Assembly: GCF_003945235.1 (NCBI RefSeq) | Contig: NZ_RSDW01000001.1 | Coordinates: 2,850,001-2,882,000 of the forward strand | Origin: Edaphobacter aggregans | Lineage (GTDB): Bacteria; Acidobacteriota; Terriglobia; Terriglobales; Acidobacteriaceae | Direction: 5' to 3' | DNA length: 32,000 nt | Shown here: in pieces, positions 10,329 to 32,000 of the stretch | Layout of the letters: each line of letters begins with the position of its first letter | Numbering within the stretch: position 1 is the stretch's first letter | Program-made: the position numbers and the translations under genes | Notes under the pieces: model-generated | Told to the model about the DNA's origin: nothing | Database searches by the model: none | Seen by the model: the letters and a program-made list of their open reading frames with translations, nothing else

Positions 10329-10344
10329 TCTGTTTACAGTATCA

Positions 10345-10365: not shown

Positions 10366-10380
10366 TTAATAATCGAGGTA

Positions 10381-12725: not shown

Positions 12726-12773
12726 GCTCTATGAATTGTAAGGGGATGAGGATTGTAAGTGGATGCAGCCCTT

Positions 12774-13628
12774 TTATTTGACGAGCATCTCCACCGCTTG
12801 AGGAACGGTGATGTTGTCCGGGAGCTGCTTGAAACTACTGTGCACCGCATGCTCCTTCTTGCCGATTGCCTTGAAGAAGATCGCGCGGCCATTGATGTCC
12901 GTATCCAACATTGCCGTCTTCCACTCGTTTCCGTACACCCTGTCGCGCGTCGTAGTGAAATTGCTGCCCGCATGGATCGTCGCGATCAGACCGTACCCGA
13001 TACTGACATCTTCCGGCAGCCTGCCCTCTATGCCGTGCAGTCGCATCCCCTGCTCGTCCACAAGAATTGAACCTGACATCCCATGCAGCACACGCTCTTC
13101 GAGAGACTGTGGTTCATACGATGGATTCGGCTTGAAGTCGATGCGCAGAAAGCCGCCCTCTTCCTTCGGCGCTCCAAAATCAAATGCCTTGGGCAGAAGC
13201 GACAGCATCTGCTTCGCGTGCTTCTCGTCGTTCTTTAGTGCTTCTTCTTTCTTCGCGAACGCGTCGGGATGCGCTGCGATGTCCGCGAGCCGCGCTTTTT
13301 CCGATGCAGCGCTGTCCCCGTTCAGTGATTGCCCATCCACGGCAACCAACATCCGCACCTTCCCCATCGACGTCTCCGCCACCCACTCTTTCCAGAGATG
13401 GCCGCCTGTCCTCTCCGACCGTTCTTCAGACAGGTAGAGATACCGGCCACGATGCTGTTCGGCTGTGCTTTCGTTGGCTATCACCGTCTCTACAATTTGC
13501 CGCGACGAGGTTGGGCTCCCGGCCCGCATCGCGGTCGCAGCGGACATAAGACACAGGAGCGCGCCGACCTTTACCCAGGCCTGCTTCAGATGTTGGTTCG
13601 ACGATGCGCATCTCACATTAAGGATCAT
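12774..13628 (-). CDS. Hypothetical secreted protein
   Basis: 284-aa ORF with an ATG start and a hydrophobic N-terminal segment VKVGALLCLMSAATAM. It lies 48 nt upstream of tgt on the same strand. No family recognised. Confidence 0.55.
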   Translation of the reverse strand: MILNVRCASSNQHLKQAWVKVGALLCLMSAATAMRAGSPTSSRQIVETVIANESTAEQHRGRYLYLSEERSERTGGHLWKEWVAETSMGKVRMLVAVDGQSLNGDSAASEKARLADIAAHPDAFAKKEEALKNDEKHAKQMLSLLPKAFDFGAPKEEGGFLRIDFKPNPSYEPQSLEERVLHGMSGSILVDEQGMRLHGIEGRLPEDVSIGYGLIATIHAGSNFTTTRDRVYGNEWKTAMLDTDINGRAIFFKAIGKKEHAVHSSFKQLPDNITVPQAVEMLVK

Positions 13629-13723
13629 CGCAGGTATTCATCTCTCTGTTGTCAGATGCAGATATTCGACGTAACGGGCGGTCAGAGGTTGTTTCTGCCG
13701 GTATCTCCAAGAAACTGCAAACA

Positions 13724-13745
13724 AACTGACGTAGACTAACGCGCA
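13724..13745 (+). repeat. Left copy of a 22-bp imperfect direct repeat (AACTGACGTAGACTAACGCGCA)
   Basis: 20/22 identical to 15090..15111. It ends 6 nt before the MFS ATG. It contains ACTGAC and ACTAAC hexamers 10 bp apart. Confidence 0.7.
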
Positions 13746-13751
13746 ACTGCC

Positions 13752-15095: not shown

Positions 15096-15111
15096 CATAA
15101 ACTAACGCGCA
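15090..15111 (+). repeat. Right copy of the 22-bp imperfect direct repeat (AACTGACATAAACTAACGCGCA)
   Basis: It overlaps the MFS stop codon (15093..15095) and lies 118 nt upstream of the DUF4157 ORF start. A separate 9-nt direct repeat CGCGCAGCG occurs at 15106..15114 and 15129..15137. Confidence 0.7.
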
Positions 15112-15228
15112 GCGATTGCATTGATCATCGCGCAGCGCTCCCCCAATAACCGCAGACGCACTCCTCCTGAAGAGTCCGTATGGATGTCGACAAATGGCCG
15201 CATAAAAAAATAACTGCGAGGTGTAATA

Positions 15229-16908: not shown

Positions 16909-16958
16909 GTACCGCAGCATAAAAACTGGGCACAACGCCTGCTTCACCCGCGAGCGCT

Positions 16959-18515
16959 TCACACCCGGGTAGTCGCATCATTGCCCCGCCGCAAAATCGT
17001 AGCGGCACTCAACGAAGCCACTCCAGCCAACCCTGCAGCCAACCAGAACACAACGCGGAAGCTCGCTACAAACGCCTCATTCACCGCGACTCGCCCCTGC
17101 GGGTCCGTCGTCTCAATCGCGGCCAGCTTCACCCGCTGTGCACCAATCTCTTGCGCAACCTCTGCCGAAACCTCAGCCCGCTTCAGCCCCCTGTCGAGCG
17201 ACGGCGAGAACACATGAAAGAAGAGCAGCCCAAACACCGCCAGCGCCAGCAACCCTGCCACCTGCGATGCCGCATTGTTCACTCCCGACGCCGACCCCGT
17301 ACTGCTCTCATCCACCGAATTCAGCACGACCGTCGTCAGCGGCGCGACGCTCACCGCCATGCCCATCCCAAGCACTATGATCGCCGGAAAATAAGTCGTC
17401 CAATACGACCCGCCGATGCCCGGCCGCGTCATCAGCGCATAGCCCACCGCAACAATCAGAGGCCCCGCAATTAGAGGCCGTCGCGCGCCATACCGCGCCA
17501 CCAGCCCGCCCGACCACCGCGACAGCGCAAACAGCAGCAGCACCATCGGCAGCAACGCAGCACCCGCAGCCGTAGGGGAATACCCCTGTACCTGAATCAG
17601 ATTCAGCGGCAAATAAAACAGAGCCCCACCAAACGCTGCATACAAAAAGAACGTCAGCACATTCGCGCCCACAAAATTGCGGCTCTCAAAGAGACTGAGT
17701 GGCATCATCGGCGCCTCACAGTGCTGTTCGACCCACACGAACGCGGCCAATAACGCCACGCCCACAACACCCGCCACTCGTGTAATCACTCCGCCCTGCG
17801 TCCACTCGATCAGCGCAAACGTAACGCCGCTCAACCCAGCGGTCGCGAGCACCGCGCCTCTCCAATCCAGCGTATGAGCAGCCGCACCACTGCGACTCTC
17901 CGGCAACTTACGCAGCGCAATCGTCACCGTCACCACGGCCAGCGGAGCATTCAAAAAGAACACCCACCGCCACGATCCATGTTGCACCAGCCAGCCTCCC
18001 ACCACCGGCCCCAGCGCTGTCATCATCGACGAGAACCCCGACCACGTCCCAATCGCCTTCCCCCGCGTCTCCGGCGGAAAACACGAGCTGATCAGCGCCA
18101 GACTGCTCGGCACTAACATCGCGCCACCTACTCCCTGCAAACATCGAGCCGCAATCAACTGCTGAATCGTCGGTGCGACCCCGCACCACACCGAAGCCGA
18201 AGCAAACAGCGTCACGCCAATAACAAAAATCCGCCGCCTCCCAAAGATGTCTCCCATCGAGCCGCCGACCAGCAGCAGCGCCGACAGAAAGAGCGCATAC
18301 GCCTCCACCACCCACTGCACTTGCGACCCGCTCGCTCCCAACCCCGTCTGCATCGCCGGCAGCGCGACATTCACCACCGTGCCGTCGATGAACTCCATGC
18401 TCGTGCCCAGCACCGTGGCCACCAGCACCCACACGCCCGTCTGCATCGTCACCGCTGCAGCAGGACGCTTCGCAAGAATGACAGCTTCATCGCACGGCAA
18501 CCGAGCGCAGTTCAT
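16959..18515 (-). CDS. MFS transporter, DHA2 (EmrB/QacA-like, 14-TMS) family
   Basis: 518 aa. MEFIDGTVVNVALPAMQ and GGSMGDIFGRRRIFVIG (motif A) are typical of DHA2. The start may be the internal ATG at 18446 (MQTGVWVLV). Confidence 0.9.
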   Translation of the reverse strand: MNCARLPCDEAVILAKRPAAAVTMQTGVWVLVATVLGTSMEFIDGTVVNVALPAMQTGLGASGSQVQWVVEAYALFLSALLLVGGSMGDIFGRRRIFVIGVTLFASASVWCGVAPTIQQLIAARCLQGVGGAMLVPSSLALISSCFPPETRGKAIGTWSGFSSMMTALGPVVGGWLVQHGSWRWVFFLNAPLAVVTVTIALRKLPESRSGAAAHTLDWRGAVLATAGLSGVTFALIEWTQGGVITRVAGVVGVALLAAFVWVEQHCEAPMMPLSLFESRNFVGANVLTFFLYAAFGGALFYLPLNLIQVQGYSPTAAGAALLPMVLLLFALSRWSGGLVARYGARRPLIAGPLIVAVGYALMTRPGIGGSYWTTYFPAIIVLGMGMAVSVAPLTTVVLNSVDESSTGSASGVNNAASQVAGLLALAVFGLLFFHVFSPSLDRGLKRAEVSAEVAQEIGAQRVKLAAIETTDPQGRVAVNEAFVASFRVVFWLAAGLAGVASLSAATILRRGNDATTRV

Positions 18516-18574
18516 CCACTCCCTCAGAACGACACAGCAAGGTTCACCCTACACCATCCGTCGTCCGAGCGAAC

Positions 18575-19174
18575 TCAATCCACGCTCATCCCAGCATCCA
18601 CATCCAGCACTAGCGACTGCCCCAGCACCAGCATCGAATGAATCTTCAGCGAAGTCAGCGACAGCGCATACCCCATCGTCTCTTCCGACCGACTCAACGC
18701 CTTGCGCATCAGATCAGCCGCGTTCACCTTCATCTGCTGTGGCAATTTGCGACTCAGAAACGGCACCAGAAAATAATCCAGCTCCTTCGACCCACTCAAC
18801 TCCTCAATGCGTGCATCGCGAAACCCAATCGTCTCGCCCTCCGCATCCGGAATCACCGACACGTCCGCCTCCCGCGTCAGCGAGATCCCCACACACGTCC
18901 CATGCATCGCCGTCCCGAGCTTCGCCTTCGTGTGCACATGCACCACCACGCGATCCTGCACGAAACTCACCTTCGGCGAATCCGCATACACATAGCAGGT
19001 CGAGTTCACATCGCCCCGCATGTAATAGCGCCCCTCAGGCCCATTGAACAGCTGAGCCTTCAGCGTACGCTCCAGCGCCTTCGCCGAGATCTTCACCTCA
19101 ACCGCCGAAGCTCTACCCAAAGCAGCAAACATCACCATCAAGAAAACAGCCAGACACCGCAAAGAAAAACGCAT
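18575..19174 (-). CDS. Hypothetical secreted protein
   Basis: Signal peptide MRFSLRCLAVFLMVMFAALGRASA. It lies 59 nt upstream of the DHA2 gene on the same strand. No family recognised. Confidence 0.6.
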   Translation of the reverse strand: MRFSLRCLAVFLMVMFAALGRASAVEVKISAKALERTLKAQLFNGPEGRYYMRGDVNSTCYVYADSPKVSFVQDRVVVHVHTKAKLGTAMHGTCVGISLTREADVSVIPDAEGETIGFRDARIEELSGSKELDYFLVPFLSRKLPQQMKVNAADLMRKALSRSEETMGYALSLTSLKIHSMLVLGQSLVLDVDAGMSVD

Positions 19175-19303
19175 CGTCCTTTAAGCATAAAGGCACACTC
19201 CCTACAGCGCACCAACACCGACCGACAACCTATTGTGTATGCTTTCAGTTGCCGAAAAATTCACCCTCACCGACGCCCTGCAAAGAGCGCAAACGGAGCA
19301 CCG

Positions 19304-20107
19304 ATGCAACGACGCGACTTCCTCGCCACCTCCCTCGCCGCCTCCGCCCTCACGCTCTCTCAGCAGGCATCCGCTCAATCCCCCCTGAGCGCAACCACAA
19401 CCCGCCTTCCAGCGCGCGAGTTATACGAGATTCGCAAGTACCACATGCAAACCGGTCCGCAGACAAAGCTCACCGAAAGCTACGTCGCCGATGCGCTCAT
19501 CCCCGCGCTCAACCGCCTCGGCATCGCACCCGTCGGTGCCTTCCACCTCGACATCGGCCCCGAGACACCAACGCTCTATCTCGTGCTCCCCTTCACCGAC
19601 CCCGTGATCCTTGCCACTGCCGAACTCCGCCTCCAAAAAGACCCCATCTTCATGAAAGCCGCCGAGCCCTTCTGGACCGCGCCTGCCACAGCCCCCGCCT
19701 TCCAGCGCGTCGAAAGCTCTCTCCTCATCGCCTTCGAAGGCTGGCCCAAGCTCACCCCTCCCGACACCAAAGCCAAACGCATCTTCCAGCTCCGCACCTA
19801 CGAGAGCCCCTCCCCCGCCGCCCACGTCCGCAAGGTCGAGATGTTCCACCACGGCGAGTTCGAAATCTTCCAAAGCGCAGGCTTCAACCAGGTCTTCTAC
19901 GGCGACACCCTCATCGGCCCTCGCATGCCTAACCTCACCTACATGCTCTCCTTCCCCGACATGAACGAACTCAACGCTCGCTGGGACAAGTTCCGCAACG
20001 ACCCCGCCTGGAAGAAACTCTCCGCAGACCCCCGCTACGCCTACGAACCCATCGTCAGCAACATCACCAACCTCATCCTCAGCCCAACAAGCTACTCGCA
20101 GATTTAG
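19304..20107 (+). CDS. NIPSNAP family protein with a twin-arginine (Tat) signal
   Basis: GGAG lies 6 nt upstream of ATG 19304. Tat motif MQRRDFLATSLAASALTL. Two NIPSNAP-like halves (LYEIRKYHM..., IFQLRTYES...). The 5' part of ORF 18638..20107 is antisense to the gene at 18575..19174 and is discarded. Confidence 0.85.
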   Translation: MQRRDFLATSLAASALTLSQQASAQSPLSATTTRLPARELYEIRKYHMQTGPQTKLTESYVADALIPALNRLGIAPVGAFHLDIGPETPTLYLVLPFTDPVILATAELRLQKDPIFMKAAEPFWTAPATAPAFQRVESSLLIAFEGWPKLTPPDTKAKRIFQLRTYESPSPAAHVRKVEMFHHGEFEIFQSAGFNQVFYGDTLIGPRMPNLTYMLSFPDMNELNARWDKFRNDPAWKKLSADPRYAYEPIVSNITNLILSPTSYSQI

Positions 20108-20115
20108 AACCGGTC

Positions 20116-22221
20116 ATGCGGTTGCCGGCGAGAGATGCGTCGCAAAAAGATCAAATACCAAAACTCAAACGTTTTAGCTTAGAATCGCATGACATGTGGA
20201 ACGACCTGAGCAAAGGGCACTCCATGACCAATGATTCCGTAAAGCTGAGCCGCAAGGCCACTGCTTGTCTCGTACTGGCCCTGCTCTTCGCACTTGTCTT
20301 CCAACTCGCATCCGCCAGTCGCGAAAACTCCATTACCTGGGACGAAGGCCATCACCTCTTCGACGGCTACAACATCTGGAAGCAGGCTGACTATGGCCTG
20401 AATCCCGAGGTCCCGCCTTTGGTAAAGATGGTGGCCGCGATGCCTCTCTTGCGGATGTCGCTGAACGTGCCTCCACAACAGGGACGGCCCGCCCAGACCG
20501 AAGCCTTCCTCGACGGCAGAGACTTCATGTTCCGCAACGACGCGGACAAACTTCTCTTCCGCGCCCGCATGGCCTCCGCCGTCTTCATGCTGGTACTGGC
20601 AGTCGCCGTATTCAGCGCAGGGTGCGAGATGTTTGGCTCGCTCGCCGGACTGCTTGCACTCGCATTTCTTGTGTTCGATCCAAACTTTCTCGCACACGGA
20701 GCGCTCGTCACCACAGACGTCGCAATCTCCTGCTGCATCTTCGTCGCGCTCTATCTTGCCTATCGTTATACAAAGCGTCCGTCGCTCGTCAGGCTCCTGC
20801 TCGTCGGTCTCGCGACCGGATTGGCAATCGTCACGAAGTTCACTGGCCTCCTCGTGTTCCCTATGCTGTTCCTGCTGGCCATCGTGGAATCCATTTATGT
20901 CCGCGATTGGCGCCTGCTGGCCCGCAGAGCCCTCGCCCTCCTGATCGTCGCCGCTCTATCGCTCGCCGTGCTCTGGTCGTTCTACGGCTTCCGTTACAGC
21001 GCCCGCCCGGAAGGCCATGACATCAATCCACCGTTAGCCGAGTACCTCAGGCAGGTGCCAAACCCGCAGGACGCTCACCGCCTCGCTCTCCTCGCTCGAA
21101 CCCGCATCCTGCCGGAGGCCTACATCTACGGCCTCGCCAACACAAAGATCACCGAGAACGCCGACACCAGCTACTTCTTCGGTCGTATCTACCCGCACGG
21201 CACCTGGCTCTACTTCCCAGCCGCATTCCTCATCAAATCCACTCTTCCGTTTCTGCTTCTGCTGGCGCTGGCACTGACGCTCATAGCAACGCGGCGACTC
21301 AAGCAAGGCCGCGAACTGCTCTTTCTCCTCATCCCTCCCGCCGTATACGTGGCAGTCGCGATGCAGTCCCACATGAACATCGGCCACAGACACCTCCTTC
21401 CCATCTATCCCTTCCTTTACCTACTCGTGGCAGCAGCAGCGATCTACCTAATCGGCACGAATCGCCGCTGGACCTACGCCATCGCAGCACTCTTCCTGTG
21501 GCAGGTCGCCGCCTCCGTGCGAATAGCACCCGCCTATATGGCCTACGGCAACGAAGCCTGGGGCGGCCCCGCGTCCGTCCACAAATATCTCAGCGACGCC
21601 AACGACGACTGGGGTCAGCAACTGAAGTCCGCAAAGCAGTATCTCGACAGTCGCGGCATCAAAGATTGCTGGATCGCGTACTTCGTCGACGGCGTCGTAG
21701 ACACCAGCTACTACGGAATTCCCTGCAAGCGCCTGCCCACCATCAACACTATGTGGCTCAATCTTCCACTCGATGTCCCCCCGGAGATCGACGGTCCTGT
21801 TCTCATCAGCGACGGCGTCCTCACCGGCATCGACTACGGTCAAGGCGAGCTCAACCCATACGAACAGTTCCGCACACTGCGCCCCACCTCGGCGATTCAG
21901 TACGGCCTCTTCGTCTATGACGGCCACTTCAAGGTCTCCCTCGCATCGGCCCACGCGAAAGCACAAAGAGCGCGCAACCTCCTCGCTGAAAACCGACCCG
22001 AAGAAGCCCTCGTCGAAGCCGAACAAGCCGCTGCACTCGCACCAGAGTCCGTCCCCGTCCAGACAACGCTGGGAGATATCCTCACGCAACTCCATCGTCC
22101 CCACGAGGCTCAGTCCCACTACCACCAGGCCCTCATCTCCGCCGAGACCATCGAGCCGGAGTTACAAGCGTCCTCAGTCCACATCCTCCAATCGAAGATA
22201 GCCGCACTCGCCACCCAATAA
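20116..22221 (+). CDS. GT-C fold glycosyltransferase (ArnT/PMT-like, GT39/GT83 type) with a C-terminal TPR-like region
   Basis: Multi-pass hydrophobic N-terminal ~480 aa. The first-loop acidic motif ITWDEGHHLF matches the DE motif of PMT/ArnT enzymes. The C-terminus LAENRPEEALVEAEQAAALAPES...HEAQSHYHQAL is TPR-like. The start may be ATG 20194 or 20224 rather than 20116. Confidence 0.8.
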   Translation: MRLPARDASQKDQIPKLKRFSLESHDMWNDLSKGHSMTNDSVKLSRKATACLVLALLFALVFQLASASRENSITWDEGHHLFDGYNIWKQADYGLNPEVPPLVKMVAAMPLLRMSLNVPPQQGRPAQTEAFLDGRDFMFRNDADKLLFRARMASAVFMLVLAVAVFSAGCEMFGSLAGLLALAFLVFDPNFLAHGALVTTDVAISCCIFVALYLAYRYTKRPSLVRLLLVGLATGLAIVTKFTGLLVFPMLFLLAIVESIYVRDWRLLARRALALLIVAALSLAVLWSFYGFRYSARPEGHDINPPLAEYLRQVPNPQDAHRLALLARTRILPEAYIYGLANTKITENADTSYFFGRIYPHGTWLYFPAAFLIKSTLPFLLLLALALTLIATRRLKQGRELLFLLIPPAVYVAVAMQSHMNIGHRHLLPIYPFLYLLVAAAAIYLIGTNRRWTYAIAALFLWQVAASVRIAPAYMAYGNEAWGGPASVHKYLSDANDDWGQQLKSAKQYLDSRGIKDCWIAYFVDGVVDTSYYGIPCKRLPTINTMWLNLPLDVPPEIDGPVLISDGVLTGIDYGQGELNPYEQFRTLRPTSAIQYGLFVYDGHFKVSLASAHAKAQRARNLLAENRPEEALVEAEQAAALAPESVPVQTTLGDILTQLHRPHEAQSHYHQALISAETIEPELQASSVHILQSKIAALATQ

Positions 22222-22399
22222 CCGCAGCCACAACTCACCCGTAAGCGCGGACTATCAATCACCCTTCCGCTTCCCCACCATCAACAAAGTGGAGGTCGAC
22301 ATTCAACCAGCAAACCTCTCGGAAGCTGATAAGAAGAAGATCGAGATCGCTCAACTCCGCGCCATCTTCGCCTGCGAGTAGAGCACCGGAGTACGCGCC

Positions 22400-24847
22400 T
22401 CATTCATCACGAAGCACAGCAAGGGGACTAATCCGAGTAGCACGAAGTGCCGGACTCAGGCTGGCCGCAAACGACACCAGAAGCAGCAGCGCGGTCACTG
22501 CAACAAGCGTCAACGCGTCACGCGAACTCACGCCATAGACCATGCTCGTCACCAGCCGGCCTAGAGCGAAAGCCGCAACGAGACCAAGCGCGATACCCAC
22601 AATCGTCGGCTTCATTCCCTGCGCAACGACCACGCGCAACACATCAGCCTTGGTTGCGCCAAACGCAATCCGCAAGCCGATCTCCTTCATCCCACGCCTC
22701 ACCGAATAAGCAAGCACGCTGTAGATACCAACCGTGCAAAGCACCAGCGCAAGCAGGCCGAAGATCGCAAGCAACTGCATATTGAAGCTGGGCTGCGTCA
22801 GCGTCTGGCCAACAAACTCCTCTAGCGTCAGCACATTATCGACCGGCACATCTTTATTGCTCTGGTGCACCGCCTCCGTCACCGCTGTATCAAGACTGTG
22901 CGGCGGAACTGCTGTCCTGACCGCAAGAAAGAGAGGTCGCGAGACCCAGGTCCCAAGGCCCCGCCCACCTTCAGTCTGCGCAAGCGGCCAGTACAACGTC
23001 GCAATCCCCGCCGAGCTGTCCAGACCAGCCTGCTTCACATCGCCCACCACTCCTACGATCTCCCGATCCTTATCCGGGTAAAACGACAGCTTCAGATGAT
23101 GTCCAACAGCATTCCCATCAGGCCAGAACTGTTTCGCCATGGACTGACTGATCACCACCACAGGCGCGGAACCCGCCCTGTCATCCGGGCTGATCTCTCT
23201 GCCCTCAAGCAGAGGAATATGCGTCGCCTTGAAATACCCTGCTGTCGCGACGCGCACCGAAACCTCAGGTTGTTCCGACATCGCAACAGCCGCATGCCCT
23301 TCCACTGCCACCGGCTGATTCGAGCCGCCGGTGAGCGGAAGATTGTCCACCGCTCCCGCAGATTCCACTCCCGGCAGCGACCGCACCCGCTGCAACACCT
23401 GATCGAAGAACTGGGCCTCCTGCGTCGCGTCAGTAAACTGCTTCCTGTTAACCTGCACGTGCATCGTCAGCACATTGTGCACATCAAAGCCGGGGTCGAT
23501 GTTCTGCAGCTTCCACAAACTTCGAATCATCAGCCCGGCCCCCACCAGCAAAACCAGAGACAACGCCACTTCGACAACCACCAGCGCAGAGCGTGTCCTG
23601 CTGCTTCCGCTATCAGCATCCGTGCGGCCAAGACCCTGTTTCAAAGCGTCGTTGACATCTCCCCTCGTCATGCTCAACGCCGGTATCAATCCCGAAAGGA
23701 TACCCGTCACAACAGAAAGTGCGAGCGTAAAGGCAAGCACCGGACCGCTCAACCCAATCTCATTCATCCGTGGCAACTTGTCTGCGAAGAACTTCAGCAG
23801 TAGCTCTATTCCGAAGTGAGCAGCCACCAGCCCAAGCGCACCACCGCACAAAGAGATGATCAGCGTCTCCCCAAGAAGCTGCTGAATAATACGAGGCCGG
23901 CTCGCCCCCATCGCAGCGCGAATAGCAATCTCTTTCCGCCGCGCAAACGTGCGTGCAAGAACAAGGTTGGCAACATTCGCACACGCAATCAACAGCACGA
24001 ATGCCACCGCTCCAAGCATCATCAGCAACGCCGGACGAACATTACCGACAATCTCTTCGCGCATCGAGTTGACCACCGCACCCCAACCCTTGTCATCATC
24101 CGGATAAGCCCGCTCCAGCCGCTGCGAGATCGTATTCATCTCAGCCTGCGCCTGCTGCACCGTGACCCCAGCCTTCAAGCGGCCAGCCGTAAGGAAGTGA
24201 TGCTCACCGCGCACAGCCGCCTCAGTCGGTGTCAGCGCCAGCGGAACCCACATCTGCGCAAACCCCGGCTGCGTCATCGCCGGCCCCATCACGCCGACAA
24301 TCGTGTAAGGATCCCCATCAAGATTGATCGATCTACCCACGACGCCCGCATCGGAACCATAGTGAGCCTGCCAGAATTTGTAGCTGAGAACGACCACCTT
24401 GTTCCTGCCCGACTGGCTCTCTTCCGGCAAAAAAACCCGCCCATGCAGCGGCTGAATTCCAAACACCGAAAAGAACTCCGGACTAACCGTGCTCGCCGTA
24501 ACAGCCTCAGGCTTTCCCGTTCCCGTGATGTCAAACCCCGCGCCCGAGTAGAGCGCCATCTGCTCGAACACATGGTTCTGCTTCTGCCAGTCGAAGAAGT
24601 TACCCGCCGACACAGAAAAGCGCGTCATCCCCGGAAAACTCGTCTGCGGCGGCGTGTGCCATACCTGCACCAACCGGTCGACATCGTGGAACGGCAGCGG
24701 CTGCAGCAAAACAGCATGGACGATGCTGAAGATGGCCGTGTTCGCTCCAATGCCGAGCGCCATGATGATGATCGCCATCAAGGCAAAGCCAGGGCTCTTC
24801 AAGAGCAGTCGGAACGCGAATCGAAGGTCTTGCATCAAGGCTGACAA
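22400..24847 (-). CDS. ADOP-family ABC transporter permease (acidobacterial duplicated orphan permease; two MacB-like periplasmic + FtsX halves)
   Basis: 815 aa. The N-terminus QDLRFAFRLLLKSPGFALMAIIIMALGIGANTAIFS is the characteristic ADOP/MacB start, and the architecture is duplicated. TTG start at 24847; ATG 24835 is an alternative. No ABC ATPase gene in the window. Confidence 0.9.
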   Translation of the reverse strand: MSALMQDLRFAFRLLLKSPGFALMAIIIMALGIGANTAIFSIVHAVLLQPLPFHDVDRLVQVWHTPPQTSFPGMTRFSVSAGNFFDWQKQNHVFEQMALYSGAGFDITGTGKPEAVTASTVSPEFFSVFGIQPLHGRVFLPEESQSGRNKVVVLSYKFWQAHYGSDAGVVGRSINLDGDPYTIVGVMGPAMTQPGFAQMWVPLALTPTEAAVRGEHHFLTAGRLKAGVTVQQAQAEMNTISQRLERAYPDDDKGWGAVVNSMREEIVGNVRPALLMMLGAVAFVLLIACANVANLVLARTFARRKEIAIRAAMGASRPRIIQQLLGETLIISLCGGALGLVAAHFGIELLLKFFADKLPRMNEIGLSGPVLAFTLALSVVTGILSGLIPALSMTRGDVNDALKQGLGRTDADSGSSRTRSALVVVEVALSLVLLVGAGLMIRSLWKLQNIDPGFDVHNVLTMHVQVNRKQFTDATQEAQFFDQVLQRVRSLPGVESAGAVDNLPLTGGSNQPVAVEGHAAVAMSEQPEVSVRVATAGYFKATHIPLLEGREISPDDRAGSAPVVVISQSMAKQFWPDGNAVGHHLKLSFYPDKDREIVGVVGDVKQAGLDSSAGIATLYWPLAQTEGGRGLGTWVSRPLFLAVRTAVPPHSLDTAVTEAVHQSNKDVPVDNVLTLEEFVGQTLTQPSFNMQLLAIFGLLALVLCTVGIYSVLAYSVRRGMKEIGLRIAFGATKADVLRVVVAQGMKPTIVGIALGLVAAFALGRLVTSMVYGVSSRDALTLVAVTALLLLVSFAASLSPALRATRISPLAVLRDE

Positions 24848-25168
24848 GCGTCTACCTCCTGCGCCACACCTACAACAAGCAATTCAAACACCACAGATCA
24901 AAGCCCAAAAGCCCATAATTATCATCACTTTTCACAAATCCACCGAAAACAAAACTGTCCATCGCCGAGCACAACCGTCCACTTCCGAACAAAAGTGACA
25001 CCTATCCAGCGTTTCTGGAATGATCGAAGGCTTCTACCTATTCAAAACGTCCACCACCGTCATCTTCAGCCCAACCACCTACTCCCAGACTTAGTACTCC
25101 GCCGAATGCTGCCGGGGAGCCTTGCGCAGCGTAGATTACAATCAAAACGCTTAGACGGGCTTACAAAC

Positions 25169-27523
25169 ATGAGATCGCGTTTGCAAGGCGGTTTGCTCGC
25201 TGCAGTCGCAATGTTTCTCGCGACCGGGGCAGTGTGTGCCTACGCACAGACGCCCCGAAAGGCTGCAGAAAAGTGGCAAATCGATGGCATAGTCGCTGCC
25301 CTAAAAGATCCTATCTTGGAAGTCAGGACACACGCCTTGCTATATGTTCAATCCAACTCAGAATTTACATGGGATGGCGTTCCTGACCCTCTAATCGCCT
25401 CTCTTCTAAATGATCCTAATGTTCGGCGGGTTATTTCTTCTCTAAAAGCGAACGACGACAACGTTCAAAGTGGAACCGATACGGCAGCAGACATAACGAT
25501 GCCTCGAAGTCAGGATGATCAAATCGCACTGCTCGAAAATCAAAATGTAAGCTTTGCTGTTCGAAAGGCCGTCGCATTGGTCCTCTGTACAACCCCTTCA
25601 CCCCAAGAGGAACATGCACTTATCACCCAACTCAGAGTCAAACAGCTTCGATCTGTCCTCGTAAAATCCCTTGTCGTACATGGACCCTTAAATTTTAAGA
25701 CGCTGCCCGATCTTACCTACCCCTTTTACTATTCTTACGAAGATTTACCGGAATATCGTTTTCTGATTCACTACCTCTTGGGTGGAAATGATAAAGCCGA
25801 ATTAGTGTTAAAACACACATTTTTCGAGGAGGGCGAGGATAAGGTAAAGGCCGCCGATTATTCAGACATAGATGATGCGCGTAAAGCTCTCGAAGCCTTT
25901 GACGCCGTTCTCCCAATCAACACGAGGAACACGGGTTTTCAGGCCGAAATTGAGAAACAGATACTTTTTATTGCACATAAATGGAAAGATGAATGGACTT
26001 CGAAAGACTATGAACTACTAAACTCACTTTCATTCAAAATGAATGAAGATTCTCGGGCTGCTCTTAATAACATCATCAAACAACCTTATTGGACACGCCT
26101 CCTTCAAAAATTGTGGAAAGTTATTGCGGTTCAGATCGCCTTTTGGATACTGCTCCTATATTTCTATCCCAGATCGAGGGCCGTCCAGGCATTCTTTTTC
26201 TGGAACCGTTGGGCACGCAAGTTCTTCGGTTTGGGATATGTCGATCTTTGTTTGACCTGGATTCCTTACTTGCGAAATCGCTTGCTCGGTCCCTTCCGCG
26301 AGGAGCTTGTAGCGGAGGCCCGTGTCTCAGACGAAGATTTGAACGACTATTTCCATGACATCGAAGTAAGGCAAGGTGAGAGTCACATTTCGCTCTTCCA
26401 CGCAATTCCTGAGATCTTTGGCCAAAGCATTCTGGAAAGTGAATCTGGTCTTGGAAAATCGATCTTCTTGCGTCGCCTCGTAAGCATGTCGAAACGGACA
26501 AACGCCTACTTGGCTGCAGAAAACTGTGATCGGGGCGTCTTCGAACTGATTCAGTTGAAGCTTAAAGGCAAAGCCAGCGATGAGACCTTTCTCCGTAGCA
26601 TCATTTGGGCTGGTGGTCTCAGCATCGTCATCGATGGATTGAATGAGGTTACCGTAGAAACACGCGAGAAGATCCGCCGCTTCGTCGACGACTTCCCAAA
26701 AGCTAATATCCTCTTAGCGACACAACCCCTGTTTTGGAAACGACCTCCCAAAGCACTGGTCTTTCGTATCTCGCCTCTTACTGACGATCGCATCCAGGCC
26801 TTCCTTGAAAGCAGATATAGGACATTTGTTTCGCCGCTCATCATGACAGAAAGCGCATATAAGCAAAGATGCCGAGACTATCTCGAAGACGTCCTCGGTA
26901 ATTGCCAGTCCGAAGAAGACAAAACAGCAGCACGGTTGGTCCTTTCAAATCCTATGGACCTTACCGTTGCCGCTCAAATTTTGGTTGCCGGTGACACTCC
27001 TACTCTTAGAAATCTGCAAGAGCAACAATTCACGCGCGTCGATCGAGACTTCCGGGATATTCGCCACGGCGAGCAGTTTCCCCTCCGGCAATTTTCCGAA
27101 AGTGTTTATGAAAGGCTTCTGGGCGACGAGATCACGCTCGACAGCTCTCAGTTCTTTGAAGCTATCCAGGTACTTTCATCTCACAAAATGGTCCTGATGC
27201 AGAATGAAATTGATGCCGATCAAAGACCTGTCAGGAGATGGGTCTTCCGCCACGATAAAATACGAGATTTCTTTTTGGTAAAAGCCTTCGAAAACGACCA
27301 CGGTAACCGAATTGGAGAGCATATAGAAGATCCACGATTCCGCGGCGTCTACCTTATGCTCGCCTCACAACTGCCCCTCGCCGAAGCCAATGAATTGAGA
27401 GACGCCCTCGTCGATCGTGCGGCAGAGACGAAGGACCACCATCTATCGGATGCCGTTGTTGAAGTCCTCAAAAGCAGACGGGTGGCAGGCTCAAGGCCAG
27501 TCACCCAAAGAACTCCAGCCTGA
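25169..27523 (+). CDS. Membrane-anchored NACHT/STAND-like P-loop NTPase with an N-terminal HEAT-like repeat domain
   Basis: The ORF 24995..27523 starts at GTG. ATG 25169 (MRSRLQGGLLAAVAMFLATGAVCAYAQ) gives a signal/anchor. HEAT-like repeats: ALKDPILEVRTHALLYV, LLNDPNVRRVISSL, LENQNVSFAVRKAVALVL. Hydrophobic block VIAVQIAFWILLLYFY...FFGLGYVDLCLTWIPYL. Walker A ESGLGKS (26447..26461), Walker B SIVIDGLNE (26624..26647), then ISPLTDDRIQAFL. Atypical low GC and codon usage. Confidence 0.75.
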   Translation: MRSRLQGGLLAAVAMFLATGAVCAYAQTPRKAAEKWQIDGIVAALKDPILEVRTHALLYVQSNSEFTWDGVPDPLIASLLNDPNVRRVISSLKANDDNVQSGTDTAADITMPRSQDDQIALLENQNVSFAVRKAVALVLCTTPSPQEEHALITQLRVKQLRSVLVKSLVVHGPLNFKTLPDLTYPFYYSYEDLPEYRFLIHYLLGGNDKAELVLKHTFFEEGEDKVKAADYSDIDDARKALEAFDAVLPINTRNTGFQAEIEKQILFIAHKWKDEWTSKDYELLNSLSFKMNEDSRAALNNIIKQPYWTRLLQKLWKVIAVQIAFWILLLYFYPRSRAVQAFFFWNRWARKFFGLGYVDLCLTWIPYLRNRLLGPFREELVAEARVSDEDLNDYFHDIEVRQGESHISLFHAIPEIFGQSILESESGLGKSIFLRRLVSMSKRTNAYLAAENCDRGVFELIQLKLKGKASDETFLRSIIWAGGLSIVIDGLNEVTVETREKIRRFVDDFPKANILLATQPLFWKRPPKALVFRISPLTDDRIQAFLESRYRTFVSPLIMTESAYKQRCRDYLEDVLGNCQSEEDKTAARLVLSNPMDLTVAAQILVAGDTPTLRNLQEQQFTRVDRDFRDIRHGEQFPLRQFSESVYERLLGDEITLDSSQFFEAIQVLSSHKMVLMQNEIDADQRPVRRWVFRHDKIRDFFLVKAFENDHGNRIGEHIEDPRFRGVYLMLASQLPLAEANELRDALVDRAAETKDHHLSDAVVEVLKSRRVAGSRPVTQRTPA

Positions 27524-27557
27524 GCATCTCCCTTGCCATTCAGGGCCGGTCACCTTT

Positions 27558-27579
27558 CGTCGCGAGCTTCTTCGCGATG
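27558..27579 (+). terminator. Hairpin (CGTCGCGA-GCTTCT-TCGCGATG) 35 nt after the NTPase stop; possible terminator
   Basis: 8-bp stem including one G-U pair, read directly. The trailing sequence is only weakly U-rich (ttctattct), so the call is weak. Confidence 0.3.
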
Positions 27580-27681
27580 AGTAGGTTCTATTCTGCCCGG
27601 GGTGAAGGCGAAGTCGTAAACGACTGAATTAACTTCCTATCCCCATAACATTCCAACCAAACCATCTATAAATCAGGCGCC

Positions 27682-28158
27682 TCATCCCAACTCCAACAGC
27701 ATTTCCCTTACCGTCACCCCAAGCACCGGATGCACCATCCCCGGCGCAATCTCCGCCAGCGGTTCCAGCACAAACCGCCGCTCCTGCATCTCCGGATGCG
27801 GCAGCGTCAGCTCCGCCGTATTCATCACCGTCTGCCCATACAGCAGCAAGTCCAGATCGATCACCCGCGGCCCCTTCGCCACGGCACCCTCACGCTCGCG
27901 CCCCATCCCGCGTTCGATATCCAGCAACCCACGCATCAACTCCAGCGGCTGCAACTCTGTCTCCAACAGCAAAGCCCCATTCAAAAACCGAGGCTGATCC
28001 ACATACCCCACCGGCTCCGTGTCATAAAACGACGACACCGCACGAACCTCACCCAACCCCCGCAACCGCTCGATAGCCACCCGAAGGTTCGCCTCGCGGT
28101 CACCAATCCCTTTTGACTCCAGATTCGACCCCAGCGCGATCGCCGCCAGACTTTTCAC
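27682..28158 (-). CDS. folK: 2-amino-4-hydroxy-6-hydroxymethyldihydropteridine diphosphokinase (HPPK)
   Basis: AIALGSNL, RVIDLDLLLYG and LTLPHPEMQERRFVLEPL are typical FolK blocks. The ORF track start (GTG 28218) adds 20 non-conserved residues, so GTG 28158 (VKSLAAIALGSNL) is preferred. Confidence 0.9.
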   Translation of the reverse strand: MKSLAAIALGSNLESKGIGDREANLRVAIERLRGLGEVRAVSSFYDTEPVGYVDQPRFLNGALLLETELQPLELMRGLLDIERGMGREREGAVAKGPRVIDLDLLLYGQTVMNTAELTLPHPEMQERRFVLEPLAEIAPGMVHPVLGVTVREMLLELG

Positions 28159-28273
28159 CCTCGCACCATCCCCAGTGCACCGAAATCTGCCGCGCCAATT
28201 ACCACCCACTGACCACACTTGCCAGTCTTTTCACCGCTTGCTAACCACCGATTTTGCCCAGAAACAGCGAAAA

Positions 28274-28292
28274 ACCGCCCAAAACCGGCGGT
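28274..28292 (-). terminator. Candidate rho-independent terminator downstream of lpxC
   Basis: On the minus strand: ACCGCC-GGTTTTG-GGCGGT followed by TTTTCG. The stem is 6 bp and the T-tract is short, so the call is weak. Confidence 0.35.
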
Positions 28293-28323
28293 AAAAAAAA
28301 ATGCAAATAACATGGAGAGAAAA

Positions 28324-29238
28324 TTAGGCATGCAGAGGCTGCAAATGTCTCTTAACCCGTTCCGGTTCAGGCACTTCGTCGTACCCATGCGCCAGCTCCC
28401 AGGCCGACCGGTCACGCAGCAACCGCTGCACCAGAGCCGTATGCATCGCATGGCCCGCCCTCTCAGCCACCACCCGCCCTTGGATCCGCCGCCCCGCTAG
28501 CGCCAGATCCCCAATCAAATCAAGCACTTTGTGTCGGACAAACTCATCCGGAAAACGAAGAGGCCCATTTTCAACGCCCTGCCGCGAAAGAATAATGGCA
28601 CTCTCATTCGAAACCCCGCGAATCAAGCCCATATCCCGCAACATAGCCTCATCTTCCTTGAATCCAAAAGTCCGCGCCGGAGCAATCTGTTCCACATAAT
28701 CCCCCACCGCGAGATCCCCGGTAAACATCTCATATCCAATAGGTTGCGGAAAATCAATCGTGTACCGTATCCCATACCCCGACCCCGGATACACCCCAAT
28801 AAACTTCGATCCGTCCCGAACCTCAACTTCCTTCAGAATCTTGATATACTCCCGCCGCCGCCTCTGCTGCTTAAGCCCAACAGAATGAAATGCTTGTACA
28901 TAAGGAAAGGCGCTTCCGTCGAGGATGGGAATCTCAAGATTATCCACCTCAACGATGACGTTATCCACCCCATACCCAATCAACGCCGAAAGCAAATGTT
29001 CCGTCGTAGAAATCAGGACACTACCCCGCATCAGGCTGGTAGCATAACTGACTTTCGCGACATTGCGTCCAATCGCAGGAATCTCAAAATTGTCTAAGTC
29101 TATGCGCCTGAACACGATACCCGATCCTGCCGGAGCCGGGACCAATCGCATCGAAACCGGAGCCCCACTGTGCAGGCCAACACCGCTAAACTCTATCTCA
29201 GACCGAATTGTCCGCTCAAAATGGGCTTCCAGTCCCAC
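28324..29238 (-). CDS. lpxC: UDP-3-O-acyl-N-acetylglucosamine deacetylase
   Basis: FSGVGLHSG, TTEHLLSAL and HKVLDLIGDL are conserved LpxC catalytic blocks. GTG start at 29238. Confidence 0.95.
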   Translation of the reverse strand: MGLEAHFERTIRSEIEFSGVGLHSGAPVSMRLVPAPAGSGIVFRRIDLDNFEIPAIGRNVAKVSYATSLMRGSVLISTTEHLLSALIGYGVDNVIVEVDNLEIPILDGSAFPYVQAFHSVGLKQQRRRREYIKILKEVEVRDGSKFIGVYPGSGYGIRYTIDFPQPIGYEMFTGDLAVGDYVEQIAPARTFGFKEDEAMLRDMGLIRGVSNESAIILSRQGVENGPLRFPDEFVRHKVLDLIGDLALAGRRIQGRVVAERAGHAMHTALVQRLLRDRSAWELAHGYDEVPEPERVKRHLQPLHA

Positions 29239-29392
29239 GAATCAACGTCTCCCACAGGTGCCATCCTTAAAATTACAGTCTGGTAAGCATCCGTCGATGT
29301 GGTAAATTCACCACACTTTGTCGGCAAGATCGTTCACTTTTGCGCCTTGGTGAACCTAGCAATAAACCTTTTTACGCCTATAACATGCATCT

Positions 29393-30529
29393 ATGAACAC
29401 CAAAACTATTCTCCCTGCAGTCGAAACCCGGCGTGAATGGATACGAAACAGCCTCAAAGAACTTGTGCTGCAAGAATCGCCAAGTGAAGACATAAATGCA
29501 GTTAACGCTGCATCGGCAATTGTGGAGCGTCTAGCTCGTGGGATGGGGGGGCGTGTCAGGCGGAATAAACAAAAAAAATTTGGGGACGTCGTCGAACTGC
29601 GCTTCGGTCCTGCACGTTCGGGGCGTAAACCCATTCTTTTACTTGGACATATGGATACGGTGTGGCCGATAGGCACGCTGAAAGAGATGCCTTGGCGGGA
29701 GGAAAAAGGGAAATTTTTTGGGCCTGGTGTGCTGGATATGAAAGCCGGAGTTGTGATGGCTCTCGCGGCCGTAAGTACCTTGAAAGAGTTGAAGTTAGAT
29801 CGACCGGTTACCTTGCTTTTAAATAGTGAGGAGGAGGTGGGGAGTCCGGTTTCTCGGGTGATTACGGAGCGGTTGGCGCAGGAATCGGCGGCGGTTTTTG
29901 TTTTGGAACCGGCTCAGGGTCTTGCTTACAAGACGGCTCGGAAGGGCGTAGGCCATTATAATGTGCAGGTTACGGGTGTTGGAGCTCATGCCGGGGTGGA
30001 CTTTGAGAAGGGGCATTCTGCGATTCTAGAGCTGGCTAAACAGATCCAGACCATCTCTGGCTTCGTCAATTTCGCACGGCAGCTGACGGTCAACTGTGGT
30101 GTTATTGGTGGAGGAACGCGGTCAAATGTCGTCGCTTCCGAGGCGCACACCGAGGTGGATGTGCGAATATCGAAGGCCCGTGATGAGGCTTATATCCAAA
30201 AGCTGTTCGACGGACTGAGGGTCTCAGACCGGCACTGCAAGCTGACCATTACAGGCGGTATCAACCGGCCTCCCATGGAGCGGAAGGCTGGGACGATTGC
30301 GCTGTTCAAGCAGGCTCGCAGGCTGGCTGCGGAGCTGGGTTTTGAGCTTGACGAGGCGGCTACGGGGGGTGGGTCGGATGGGAACTTCACGGCTGCGCTT
30401 GGGGTGCCTACGCTCGATGGAATGGGGGCAGTAGGAGAGGGGGCTCATGCGGCGCATGAGTCGGTCGTGATTGAGCACCTGGTGCCGCGGACGGCTCTGC
30501 TGGCGGCGATGATTGCGAGTGTGGATTAG
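29393..30529 (+). CDS. M20 family metallopeptidase (carboxypeptidase G2 / glutamate carboxypeptidase-like)
   Basis: LLLGHMDTVWP, GPGVLDMKAG and LLNSEEEVGSP metal-ligand blocks. Codons are strongly G/T-ending, unlike plus-strand genes further left. Confidence 0.85.
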   Translation: MNTKTILPAVETRREWIRNSLKELVLQESPSEDINAVNAASAIVERLARGMGGRVRRNKQKKFGDVVELRFGPARSGRKPILLLGHMDTVWPIGTLKEMPWREEKGKFFGPGVLDMKAGVVMALAAVSTLKELKLDRPVTLLLNSEEEVGSPVSRVITERLAQESAAVFVLEPAQGLAYKTARKGVGHYNVQVTGVGAHAGVDFEKGHSAILELAKQIQTISGFVNFARQLTVNCGVIGGGTRSNVVASEAHTEVDVRISKARDEAYIQKLFDGLRVSDRHCKLTITGGINRPPMERKAGTIALFKQARRLAAELGFELDEAATGGGSDGNFTAALGVPTLDGMGAVGEGAHAAHESVVIEHLVPRTALLAAMIASVD

Positions 30530-30598: not shown

Positions 30599-31423
30599 CT
30601 ATCGAGACTCATAGTGGCCGCGTGGCTGGCGCCATCGGAAGCACGCAAGCAAGCCGATGATGCCAATCGGAAGAAATGTTCCCGGCTCGGGTACGGGAGC
30701 AGCACTCAAGAAATCGCCGGAAGCCGACGTAAATGTCCAACCCGGGGGCAATTCCAGGAAAGCTTCAGCCGTGCGGCCAAAGTCCGCGCTTGAATCGGGG
30801 TACCCTATACCCGCTGACGCAGACACGTTCAAAGATTCCGTAAGTAATATTGGAGAGTGTGGCCCTGTGAGCGTTATCCCTGCGCTTACGACAAAAGAAG
30901 TCGGACCTTGATCGCCCGATATAGTAGAGACACTCTTACACTCAAAGATGTTGAACTCTATTACGTCCACACACGCGGTTGCTCCAGCGTTGCCTCCATT
31001 TAACCCTCCATCGACCCTCATCCCAAAAATGATTGTGCCACTTGATAAGGGATTGTCAGCCGGGGGCATGAAATCAAGATAGTTAGAGAAGTTTGCGTAC
31101 GCCGATGCATCGGCGAATGTAGCTTCTCCGTTTGTACCAGCATTTCCAGATGCTGCAGCGAAGGCATGAAGCGATCCTTGCGTCGTCCCAATGCTGTTCG
31201 CGCTTGCCATCCCGAACCTGCCATCCGGGCAACTGTGCATCGTACTCTGCTCTCCGTCGGCCATCCTCAACCCCACACCACCACCCTCGTAGGATTCGTT
31301 CGCGCCGGCGCAAGCAGCACCCACCTCGCCGCTGACTTCAGCCCCATATGGGATCGTATCTGAGAAGCACGACGTTGAGATCGCTAGTAGAAACAACAGC
31401 AGGACAGAGCCAGAGAGCGCCAT
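30599..31423 (-). CDS. PEP-CTERM sorting-signal protein (secreted, Gly/Ala/Ser-rich)
   Basis: Signal peptide MALSGSVLLLFLLAISTSCFS. C-terminal VPEPGTFLPIGIIGLLACFRWRQPR = PEP motif + TM + basic tail. Confidence 0.8.
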   Translation of the reverse strand: MALSGSVLLLFLLAISTSCFSDTIPYGAEVSGEVGAACAGANESYEGGGVGLRMADGEQSTMHSCPDGRFGMASANSIGTTQGSLHAFAAASGNAGTNGEATFADASAYANFSNYLDFMPPADNPLSSGTIIFGMRVDGGLNGGNAGATACVDVIEFNIFECKSVSTISGDQGPTSFVVSAGITLTGPHSPILLTESLNVSASAGIGYPDSSADFGRTAEAFLELPPGWTFTSASGDFLSAAPVPEPGTFLPIGIIGLLACFRWRQPRGHYESR

Positions 31424-31533: not shown

Positions 31534-32000
31534 TCAACTACGCTGGCGATCGATATGCCCTAGTTTGGCGCGGGCTTCTTCGAGGAGGGTGATGGTGCGG
31601 GCTATGGGGAGGCCGACTACATTGAAGTAGCAGCCTTCGATGCGGGGGATCCAGCGGGCGGCGTAGCCCTGGATTGCGTAGGCTCCGGCTTTGTCGAGAG
31701 GGTCGCCGGTGGCGATGTAGTCGGCGATTTCGGAGTCTGTGAGAACGTTGAAGGTGACCTGGGTGACTTCGACGTCGCTGACGATTTTGGCGCGGGTGGC
31801 GGCGGCTATGCCTGTGAGAACGGCGTGGGTGCGGCCGCAGAGTAGCTGAAGCATACGGCGGGCGTGGTCGGGGTTGGCGGGCTTGCCCAGGATGTGGCCG
31901 TCGCAGACGACGCAGGTGTCTGCGCCGAGGACGATGAGCGGGTCTTCGGGCGTATCGAGCGAGCGGCGGAGATTCCAGATGGTTTGGGCCTTCTCTTCGG
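31534..32000 (-). CDS. maf: Maf family nucleoside triphosphate pyrophosphatase, C-terminal part; the 5' end lies beyond the right edge
   Basis: The ORF track shows only 31534..31854. My manual translation continues in frame upstream: [53 protein letters not shown]...GAYAIQG, typical of Maf. Confidence 0.85.

Follow-up and report, generated by a model that had tools for sequence, protein, structure and literature searches.

The window, by which we mean the whole stretch of 32,000 nucleotides of Edaphobacter aggregans DNA analysed here, carries near its right end a pair of divergently oriented genes. The gene lpxC (28324..29238) lies on the minus strand and reads away from a non-coding spacer of 154 bp with 44% GC (29239..29392), on whose other side a gene for an M20/M25/M40 metallopeptidase of the glutamate-carboxypeptidase-like type (29393..30529; M20 in the following) occupies the plus strand. 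To the left of lpxC lies folK, encoding HPPK (27682..28218, minus strand). M20 is followed by a PEP-CTERM-like gene (30599..31423, minus strand) and by the 3' part of maf (31534..32000, minus strand), which continues past the end of the window. Pfam recognises LpxC, HPPK, M20, Maf, MacB/FtsX, MFS, TGT, M28, multihaem cytochrome, PMT, NIPSNAP and other families, encoded on both strands.

The spacer holds two elements of its own. The inverted repeat TGTGGY-N6-RCCACA (29298..29315) is conserved across loci, and the initial annotation had described it as a near-palindrome with two mismatches per half to the DnaA box. The repeat TGTGGTAAATTCACCACA is kept even in lineages that lack the compositional switch described below; the base preceding CCACA is always R and never T; and in one relative (L049) both half-sites have changed symmetrically, which argues for a dimer-type operator. 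Judged from these patterns of conservation, the element is no pair of DnaA boxes but probably an operator bound by a dimeric regulator. The second element is an AT-rich 60-mer (29351..29410; 33% GC, the fourth lowest value of the window), which contains the conserved CCTATAACAT, ending 6 nt before the ATG of M20, and overlaps a -10-like element that is conserved in the promoter region of M20. It may be promoter-like (an extended -10) or possibly an unwinding element.

A search with the DnaA-box query TTATCCACA, allowing at most one mismatch, returned six matches in the window against 3.7 expected and none in the 154-bp spacer; no DnaA-box cluster lies in non-coding DNA, and no k-mer enrichment was found around the junction. 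Relaxed boxes are about 5 times denser near the 5' end of lpxC, yet they lie on the G-poor strand of this gene, where a G-free 9-mer is favoured. Two look-alikes of the form TTATCCACC, 21 bp apart within lpxC (28940..28969, plus strand), were rejected as a coding artefact, being the reverse complement of the GVDNVIVEVDNLE codons of a conserved VDN..VDN motif.

A compositional switch in the window and its clade

The plus strand of the window is C-rich throughout the left arm (1..29238; raw GC skew about -0.19) and turns G-rich at the spacer. In 1-kb windows its raw skew ranges from -0.03 to -0.36 over positions 1-29,000 and reaches up to +0.26 at 29-30.5 kb. The cumulative G-C curve is lowest at 29,429, a two-segment change-point model fits best at 29,430, and a step detector (2.5 kb per side, cut-off |delta| of at least 0.25) reports just one step for the window, at 29,450 (+0.37). 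Skew at 4-fold sites (GC4) and at third codon positions gives the same picture gene by gene: the plus-strand value is negative in 22/22 genes left of the spacer irrespective of their orientation (sign test, p = 2e-7), with a left-arm GC4 of about -0.5 and means of -0.50 for genes on the plus strand (n=11) and -0.45 for those on the minus strand (n=10). The strongest skew of all genes is that of folK (GC4 -0.85), which is negative in every relative examined, and lpxC closes the C-rich arm at -0.57. On the other side, M20 opens the G-rich arm with +0.47, and maf reaches +0.87 in the window (+0.82 for the full-length gene on a same-species contig, L001). Since the 4-fold skew has the same sign in both gene orientations, the asymmetry is a property of the DNA strand and not of the coding strand.

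An orientation-independent G/C polarity switch near 29.3 kb, as originally described from hand tallies that prove correct, is thereby borne out. The impression that the skew was large for a bacterial chromosome was likewise justified, as the mean raw |skew| is only 0.06 in a comparison set of 68 non-syntenic Acidobacteriaceae loci. Skew steps are also rare elsewhere, with two others in 229 kb of subclade loci and four in 1,123 kb outside, and an interim reading that such steps are commonplace was dropped on these counts. The explanation of the step as a mere coding-orientation effect of a divergent gene pair applies in part to the raw skew of distant relatives; it fails in the clade of the window, where the step is present at 4-fold sites.

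Neither the M20 nor the LpxC protein of the window has an exact match on record. Close relatives were found by a homolog search with the M20 protein, and those with the same gene order have 87-97% M20 identity. The position of the minimum was determined in six clade loci, namely the window and five relatives. In all six, the minimum of the cumulative skew is the global one and falls 26-78 nt inside M20 (29419..29470 in the window), so that the polarity is that of an origin; the cumulative maximum that would mark a terminus was not found at the junction. An assembly chimera is ruled out by an independent Logan contig of the same species (L165; 97% M20 identity, 96.4% nucleotide identity), which spans folK-lpxC-M20 and shows the same step.

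Relatives with 87-92% M20 identity (L168-L171) share the order ADOP permease, variable large NTPase gene, folK, lpxC, M20, variable insert and maf. In L171, 10/10 of the 1-kb bins on the left are negative and 11/11 on the right are positive, with a mean GC4 of -0.56 vs +0.52. The loci L168 and L169 show the same pattern as L171-L173, and the right arm of L168 carries YchF (GC4 +0.84), ABATE (+0.58), EamA on the plus strand (+0.56), P460 (+0.64) and a haem-binding gene (+0.80). Two further loci, L172 and L173, were obtained by walking right with a DinB_2 protein; their right arm is positive to +20.5 kb in 20/21 bins and, at 4-fold sites, in 20/21 genes of both orientations, including a LysRS-type synthetase (GC4 +0.85) and Bax1-I (+0.81). 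In the clade of the window the origin-polarity switch therefore extends at least 29 kb leftward (window) and 20.5 kb rightward (L172); its arms are equally strong, and it is placed to within about 100 bp. This settles the initial reservation that only 2.7 kb lay to the right of the switch, since the 1-kb bins of L171-L173 are all positive but one up to +20.5 kb. The skew does not return to negative beyond 32 kb, either: resident genes past the gene after maf stand at +0.5 to +0.85.

A few genes depart from the pattern. On the same-species contig L001 (98.4% identity), the TBDR-like gene directly after maf is weakly negative (GC4 -0.19), and from this contig the G-rich stretch had been read as a two-gene island beyond which the skew turns negative again. 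That reading was dropped: the gene, TBDR838, follows maf in the subclade of the window and is absent in L171, which marks it as an insertion within a strongly positive arm. When this gene was used to search for homologs, no full-length protein of the same species was returned, and its partial orthologs lie in other contexts. The PEP-CTERM gene, rightly singled out at the outset as breaking the pattern (GC4 -0.14, a neutral skew), is absent from all relatives and from L165, and is accordingly a recent insertion, polymorphic within the species, at an M20|maf insertion hot spot. The other pattern-breakers are lineage-specific, namely a COesterase gene, an Asp-protease gene together with an 813-aa gene, a 784/804-aa ORFan and a 329-aa ORFan. 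All exceptions to the skew pattern are demonstrable insertions.

Skew and gene order in more distant relatives

More distant relatives were collected by a Maf-based scan of reference genomes and metagenomes, the best ones being 82-83% identical. The scan assigns the window to the Edaphobacter/Tunturiibacter/Granulicella group of the Acidobacteriaceae. The order folK-lpxC-M20-maf is syntenic in them, and folK and lpxC are negative nearly everywhere. The block right of lpxC, which comprises M20, maf, an aldose-epimerase-like gene, NIPSNAP, a nucleoside hydrolase gene and a 1,240-aa TonB-dependent receptor gene, is heterogeneous: its skew is strongly negative in L012, L015 and L049, about zero in L034, L014 and L006, and moderately positive in L003, L083, L084, L008 and L009. 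Strongly negative skew is back 8-10 kb to the right in L014, L005 and L044. Attenuated forms of the switch occur in L003, L083, L084, L004, L008 and L009; L012, L015, L049 and L005 lack it although they have the lpxC-M20 pair. In the sister group, GC4 is -0.06 to +0.17 for M20 and about +0.5 for maf, as compared with +0.42 to +0.85 for M20 and maf in the clade of the window. A position of the switch that is kept among related genomes, as is usual of an oriC, is not seen; a clean switch is confined to the window clade.

The local gene arrangement does not vary along with the skew. The minus-strand lpxC is adjacent to the plus-strand M20 in 23/23 loci that carry both genes, with or without the switch, and both the elements of the spacer and its length (mostly 151-154 bp) are kept; in L015, which has no switch, a 3.1-kb insertion lies between the two genes. 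An invertible segment was rejected, as the inverted repeats flanking M20-maf do not exceed chance level (none longer than 27 nt or more than 82% complementary), and no tRNA genes were found. Import of M20-maf by homologous recombination was rejected as well, the protein distances of LpxC/FolK and M20/Maf being free of phylogenetic discordance.

A breakpoint specific to the clade does exist, and it sits right of maf. The arrangement maf-epimerase is ancestral and occurs in other genera too, whereas the window clade has maf, insertions and YchF. In the cultured E. dinghuensis, the YchF...LysRS block lies elsewhere, adjoining HSP15 and RelA, with a GC4 of +0.39 to +0.78 in both orientations, and it ends at a skew step beside YchF. 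The same composition in E. dinghuensis implies that this block was already G-rich on that strand when it arrived beside maf. In other genera, lpxC is not adjacent to M20-maf. Comparison of the relatives yields no inversion endpoint at lpxC|M20, the true clade-specific break lying right of maf. The suggestion that a recent inversion boundary would explain the data equally well has to be abandoned, given an adjacency kept in 23 loci including switch-less ones, the lack of repeats and a right arm that is not relaxing.

Substitution regimes on the two arms

The G-rich arm may be a relic or may be maintained. Within the clade, 0.57-0.76 of the 4-fold sites are identical, where about 0.33 would be expected by chance; a substantial fraction has therefore turned over. 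The skew decay of a displaced segment is not observed: the right arm equals the left in strength though 24-43% of the 4-fold sites differ within the clade. A flipped block relaxing toward -0.5 would be expected to stand at no more than about +0.37 given this turnover, whereas the right arm is observed at about +0.6.

Third-position changes were polarized by Fitch parsimony on the clade tree; folK, lpxC and ADOP contributed 440 to the left arm, and M20 and maf 275 to the right. An identical regime on both arms is rejected in 5/5 comparisons of complementary rates (z = 2.1-3.3). A mirror-image regime fits in 4/5 comparisons and fails for C>T vs G>A, for which the ln ratio is -1.05 +/- 0.17 on the left and -0.12 +/- 0.26 on the right, against a mirror expectation of +1.05 (z = -3.8). 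On the G-rich strand of the left arm, C>T exceeds G>A 2.9-fold. The implied equilibrium GC3 skew is -0.32 on the left (95% interval -0.46 to -0.14) and +0.21 on the right (-0.05 to +0.42). Because the equilibria are of opposite sign and a shared regime is rejected, the G-richness of the right arm is being upheld at least partly and is not decaying under the regime of the left.

Two simpler measures were set aside. The net G/C flux between near-identical strains is uninformative, as both arms lose their abundant base, which reflects the GC>AT bias that recent mutations show in general. Rate ratios from close pairs alone are underpowered; they leaned to one regime on both arms and are superseded by the analysis of the whole tree.

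Replication origin, rearrangement or terminus

The landmarks that usually accompany a bacterial origin are missing. A tblastn search with DnaA found no DnaA-like gene in the window or in about 160 related loci, so that the initial statement that neither dnaA nor dnaN lies here holds for the window and extends to all of these loci. Pfam annotation from -29 to +20.5 kb revealed no dnaA/dnaN, parAB, gidAB, rnpA, rpmH or gyrB. Transcription is not directed mostly away from the site: among genes with Pfam-validated strands, 9/17 on the left are on the plus strand and 10/16 on the right on the minus strand, which makes them convergent on the site by a statistically insignificant difference, and 19 lie on the C-rich and 14 on the G-rich strand. 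The ORF-strand caller is itself skew-biased (it flips 8/29 validated genes on the C-rich strand and 1/22 on the G-rich strand), and gene-strand polarity is only a weakly informative test. The neighbourhood is moreover a hot spot of insertions, as is not typical of origins. Other places considered for an oriC fare no better. The gap between maf and YchF contains a real, conserved 80-aa gene with unconserved flanks, no DnaA boxes and no Rfam hit, and the 546-bp gap beside YchF in E. dinghuensis is devoid of DnaA boxes. No report of a mapped origin for Acidobacteriaceae was found in the literature. The reading of the locus as an origin, raised in the initial annotation, thus stands as far as skew polarity, a span of at least 50 kb and equal arms are concerned; it finds no backing in a DnaA-box cluster or in linkage to dnaA, and an identity as oriC is unproven.

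What the arms have in common with an origin can be put in terms of fork movement. The lpxC-M20 spacer would be the point at which the two strands exchange their long-term mutational roles; the DNA on the left behaves as if it were replicated leftward and that on the right as if rightward, and forks would diverge at the spacer or within a few hundred bp of it, which would make it a chromosomal site of the origin type. That replication direction is the cause of the switch we infer from the usual rule of a G-rich leading strand. The C>T excess seen on the left arm's G-rich strand is what a lagging-strand template classically shows, and it speaks for a normal polarity. No mechanism other than divergence of forks accounts directly for the primary data, that is, full-strength, orientation-independent and maintained arms of opposite sign at a conserved adjacency. 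We therefore favour the view that replication forks diverge at or near the lpxC-M20 spacer, as a candidate for an unusual origin that is not proven, and give it a probability of roughly 0.45. Such an origin, if real, would be atypical: unlinked to dnaA, without a recognisable array of boxes, confined to a divergent promoter region of 154 bp and unused in some congeners. The further proposal that the spacer is the working oriC of this Edaphobacter lineage, gained or lost among congeners without local sequence change and hence a case of origin turnover within a genus, appears doubtful, and the case against a classical oriC is substantial, if circumstantial.

The switch could alternatively be the junction of two long-lived blocks with opposite strand histories, brought together by rearrangements on the right side and passed by forks in one direction; we consider this unlikely. 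The clade-specific breakpoint just right of maf speaks for it, as does the YchF...LysRS block of E. dinghuensis, which elsewhere in the genome has the same strong intrinsic skew and ends at a step, and the junction of lpxC with M20-maf is itself an old join, given that the two are apart in other genera. Other steps or block inversions also occur nearby in relatives (L004, L015, left-neighbour inversions in L009 and L012, and far left in L168). The step of the window, however, falls on lpxC|M20 and away from the maf|YchF breakpoint, the clade has a more strongly positive M20 and maf than its sister group, and the lpxC|M20 adjacency predates the clade. A junction of this kind would agree with the lack of every origin hallmark and with a right arm that shows no mirrored deamination asymmetry and whose implied equilibrium (+0.21) is weaker than the observed skew (+0.60). 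It is at odds with the missing decay (at most +0.37 expected vs about +0.6 seen), with the rejection of one regime for both arms and with the absence of any step of opposite polarity within +20.5 kb.

Initiation might also be secondary or part-time, with rightward forks leaving the spacer in a fraction of cell cycles and a canonical, dnaA-linked origin further right. A site of this sort would leave the left side always replicated leftward and the right side mixed, and the regime of the right arm does lie between neutral and mirror (chi-square p of about 0.05 vs neutral, about 0.002 vs mirror and < 1e-6 vs the same regime, calculated by hand). In many relatives the right block takes intermediate values of skew (-0.3 to +0.4), next to a folK and an lpxC that are strongly negative throughout, and in several the skew falls with rightward distance over about 10 kb. 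A rightward fork, though, normally proceeds far beyond 10 kb, and the right arm of the clade keeps its full strength over at least 20 kb, contrary to the prediction; initiator boxes are lacking, and we know of no natural bacterial chromosome in which two origins have been established, which also counts against a part-time site. We hold this explanation to be improbable. Least probable is that the site is a replication terminus and the lineage has a C-rich leading strand, an inverted polarity under which the meeting point of forks would be expected to shift between lineages without local sequence change. The convergence of genes on the junction would suit it, and so would the position of 11/13 genes of the E. 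dinghuensis YchF-LysRS block, including lysS, on the C-rich strand, the evolutionary lability of a switch whose local sequence is unchanged, the wealth of insertions and variable NTPase genes in the region and the missing origin hallmarks. Against a terminus stand the C>T excess on the left-arm G-rich strand, which is that expected of a lagging-strand template, and the gene strands, with 7/10 tRNA genes on the regionally G-rich strand and about 52-56% of genes there family-wide after correction for the caller bias. No dif-like site with a core of the ATAA-N6-TTAT type is evident in the spacer by eye, and the leading strands of bacteria are, to our knowledge, G-rich almost without exception, which counts against this reading too.

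If the spacer is functional in the way favoured here, it would represent a new variant of a bacterial origin. Forks diverging at this place would mean an origin that is missed by predictors of the Ori-Finder/DoriC type, because these rely on dnaA linkage and DnaA boxes, and its presence or absence among congeners with identical local sequence would make the relocation of bacterial origins directly testable. If the site is a rearrangement junction, a V-shaped minimum with full-strength arms over tens of kb would be possible without an origin, which would call for caution in skew-based origin calling and in peak-to-trough growth estimates in soil Acidobacteria. In both cases the clade, with its unusually strong strand bias (GC4 of about +/-0.5), offers a useful natural system for the study of replication-associated mutation.

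Among known systems, the steps left by inversions within a replichore, as in the IS-rich Yersinia pestis and Bordetella pertussis, resemble the locus in their abrupt change of sign at a gene boundary and in a lineage-specific breakpoint nearby. Inversion steps, however, fall on synteny breaks and repeats, have a partner of opposite polarity and fade with time, whereas the lpxC-M20 step sits at a conserved adjacency, has no repeats and no partner step within 20 kb, and shows a regime that seems to maintain the skew. With origins that lie away from dnaA, of the gidA-oriC-mioC type of E. coli, the site shares the polarity of a cumulative minimum, equal arms and a distance of more than 20 kb from any dnaA. 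The E. coli oriC is, however, a dedicated stretch of about 250 bp with a DnaA-box array and 13-mer unwinding repeats, conserved in position across its family; at lpxC-M20 there is no box array, only the 154-bp promoter spacer is non-coding, and the switch is missing in congeners with the same spacer. The Cori of Caulobacter crescentus is an intergenic origin that shares its DNA with promoters and regulator sites and has only a few, degenerate DnaA boxes. It lies about 2 kb from dnaA and extends over several hundred bp with defined DnaA, CtrA and IHF sites, none of which is recognisable at the candidate site between lpxC and M20. Cori overlaps the divergent promoter region of hemE, and the likeness between the two lies in this arrangement, an origin-type site placed within a promoter-bearing intergenic region.

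Strand skew and its relaxation after rearrangement

The strand skew of the window's clade is exceptionally pronounced for its family, reaching approximately 0.2-0.35 in raw terms and about 0.5 at fourfold degenerate sites (window 1-29238 against L016-L082, the loci used for comparison). Other Acidobacteriaceae genera in the same comparison show a mean absolute raw skew of 0.06, so that the clade exceeds them several times over. The left arm (1-29238) owes its C-richness mainly to a strand asymmetry of about 2.9-fold between C>T and G>A changes.

A pair formed by a HipA_2-like kinase and DUF3037 (window 599-1793) is inverted relative to its counterpart in the close relative L168 (323-1487), where it abuts DUF4440 and the ADOP permease; relative to L168, an inversion or insertion spanning at least 20 kb (approximately 0.6-22.3 kb) is therefore present in the window. 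Despite this event, the skew is uniformly negative in the window. Among more distant relatives, L009 and L012 both carry the two genes immediately left of folK (466 aa and 615 aa) in the opposite orientation to that seen in L008. GC4, the plus-strand skew at fourfold degenerate sites, now stands near 0 for these genes in L009, and they are fully re-equilibrated in L012 (GC4 -0.5 to -0.6). The two loci thus offer natural time points for the rate at which skew relaxes following an inversion.

An abrupt skew edge also exists in the cultured E. dinghuensis (L174, 14448-16459), in which the strongly skewed YchF...LysRS block stops beside YchF: GC4 is near 0.6 inside the block and drops to roughly 0 across DUF4382, HSP15, GH43 and RelA. 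The boundary coincides with a 546-bp AT-rich intergenic gap that contains no DnaA boxes.

Variable joints and isolated genes

Comparison of the window, the same-species contig L165, the close relatives L168-L172 and distant relatives shows that the M20|maf joint (window 30530-31533) is an insertion hot spot. It is occupied in the window by a PEP-CTERM-like gene, which is missing from L165. In L169 and L170 it holds an Asp-protease gene together with a gene of 813 aa, whereas L171 and L172 have an ORFan of 784/804 aa there. The joint is empty in L168 as well as in distant relatives, in which M20 and maf abut or overlap.

The interval separating folK from the ADOP permease looks like a variable site for defence-like STAND NTPase genes. 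In the window it holds an 842-aa gene (24995-27523) of low GC (48%) with a P-loop (GLGKS) and no match in Pfam or NCBIfam; L168 carries a TIR-NB-ARC-WD40 protein at this position, and L171 a Sel1 and a 731-aa protein.

In the window's clade, the interval between maf (or TBDR838) and ychF holds a small conserved gene of 80 aa (MSDEDLKAEIERLRAENDKL...; L171 14697-14939; L168 16794-17036; also L172). It has a good ribosome-binding site, and matches neither a protein family nor an Rfam model. Separately, an eCIS_core domain (extracellular contractile injection system core) occurs in a protein of 559 aa (window 15229-16908) that stands alone amid metabolic and transport genes.

Elements of the lpxC-M20 spacer

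Two elements mark the spacer. The conserved (T/C)(G/C)CTATAACAT (window 29377-29395) has its 3' end 6 nt upstream of the M20 ATG. Because the element ends so close to the ATG and no Shine-Dalgarno sequence precedes the latter, the M20 transcript may have little or no leader; a simple scan for sigma-70 promoters found no consensus match in the spacer.

The other element, the palindrome TGTGGY-N6-RCCACA (window 29298-29315), lies between lpxC and M20, is conserved in the window and 23 related loci, and constitutes a putative operator. Both half-sites have changed symmetrically in the distant relative L049 (TGTGTC...GACACA). Compared with a CRP box, the half-sites of this putative operator are spaced 2 bp wider.
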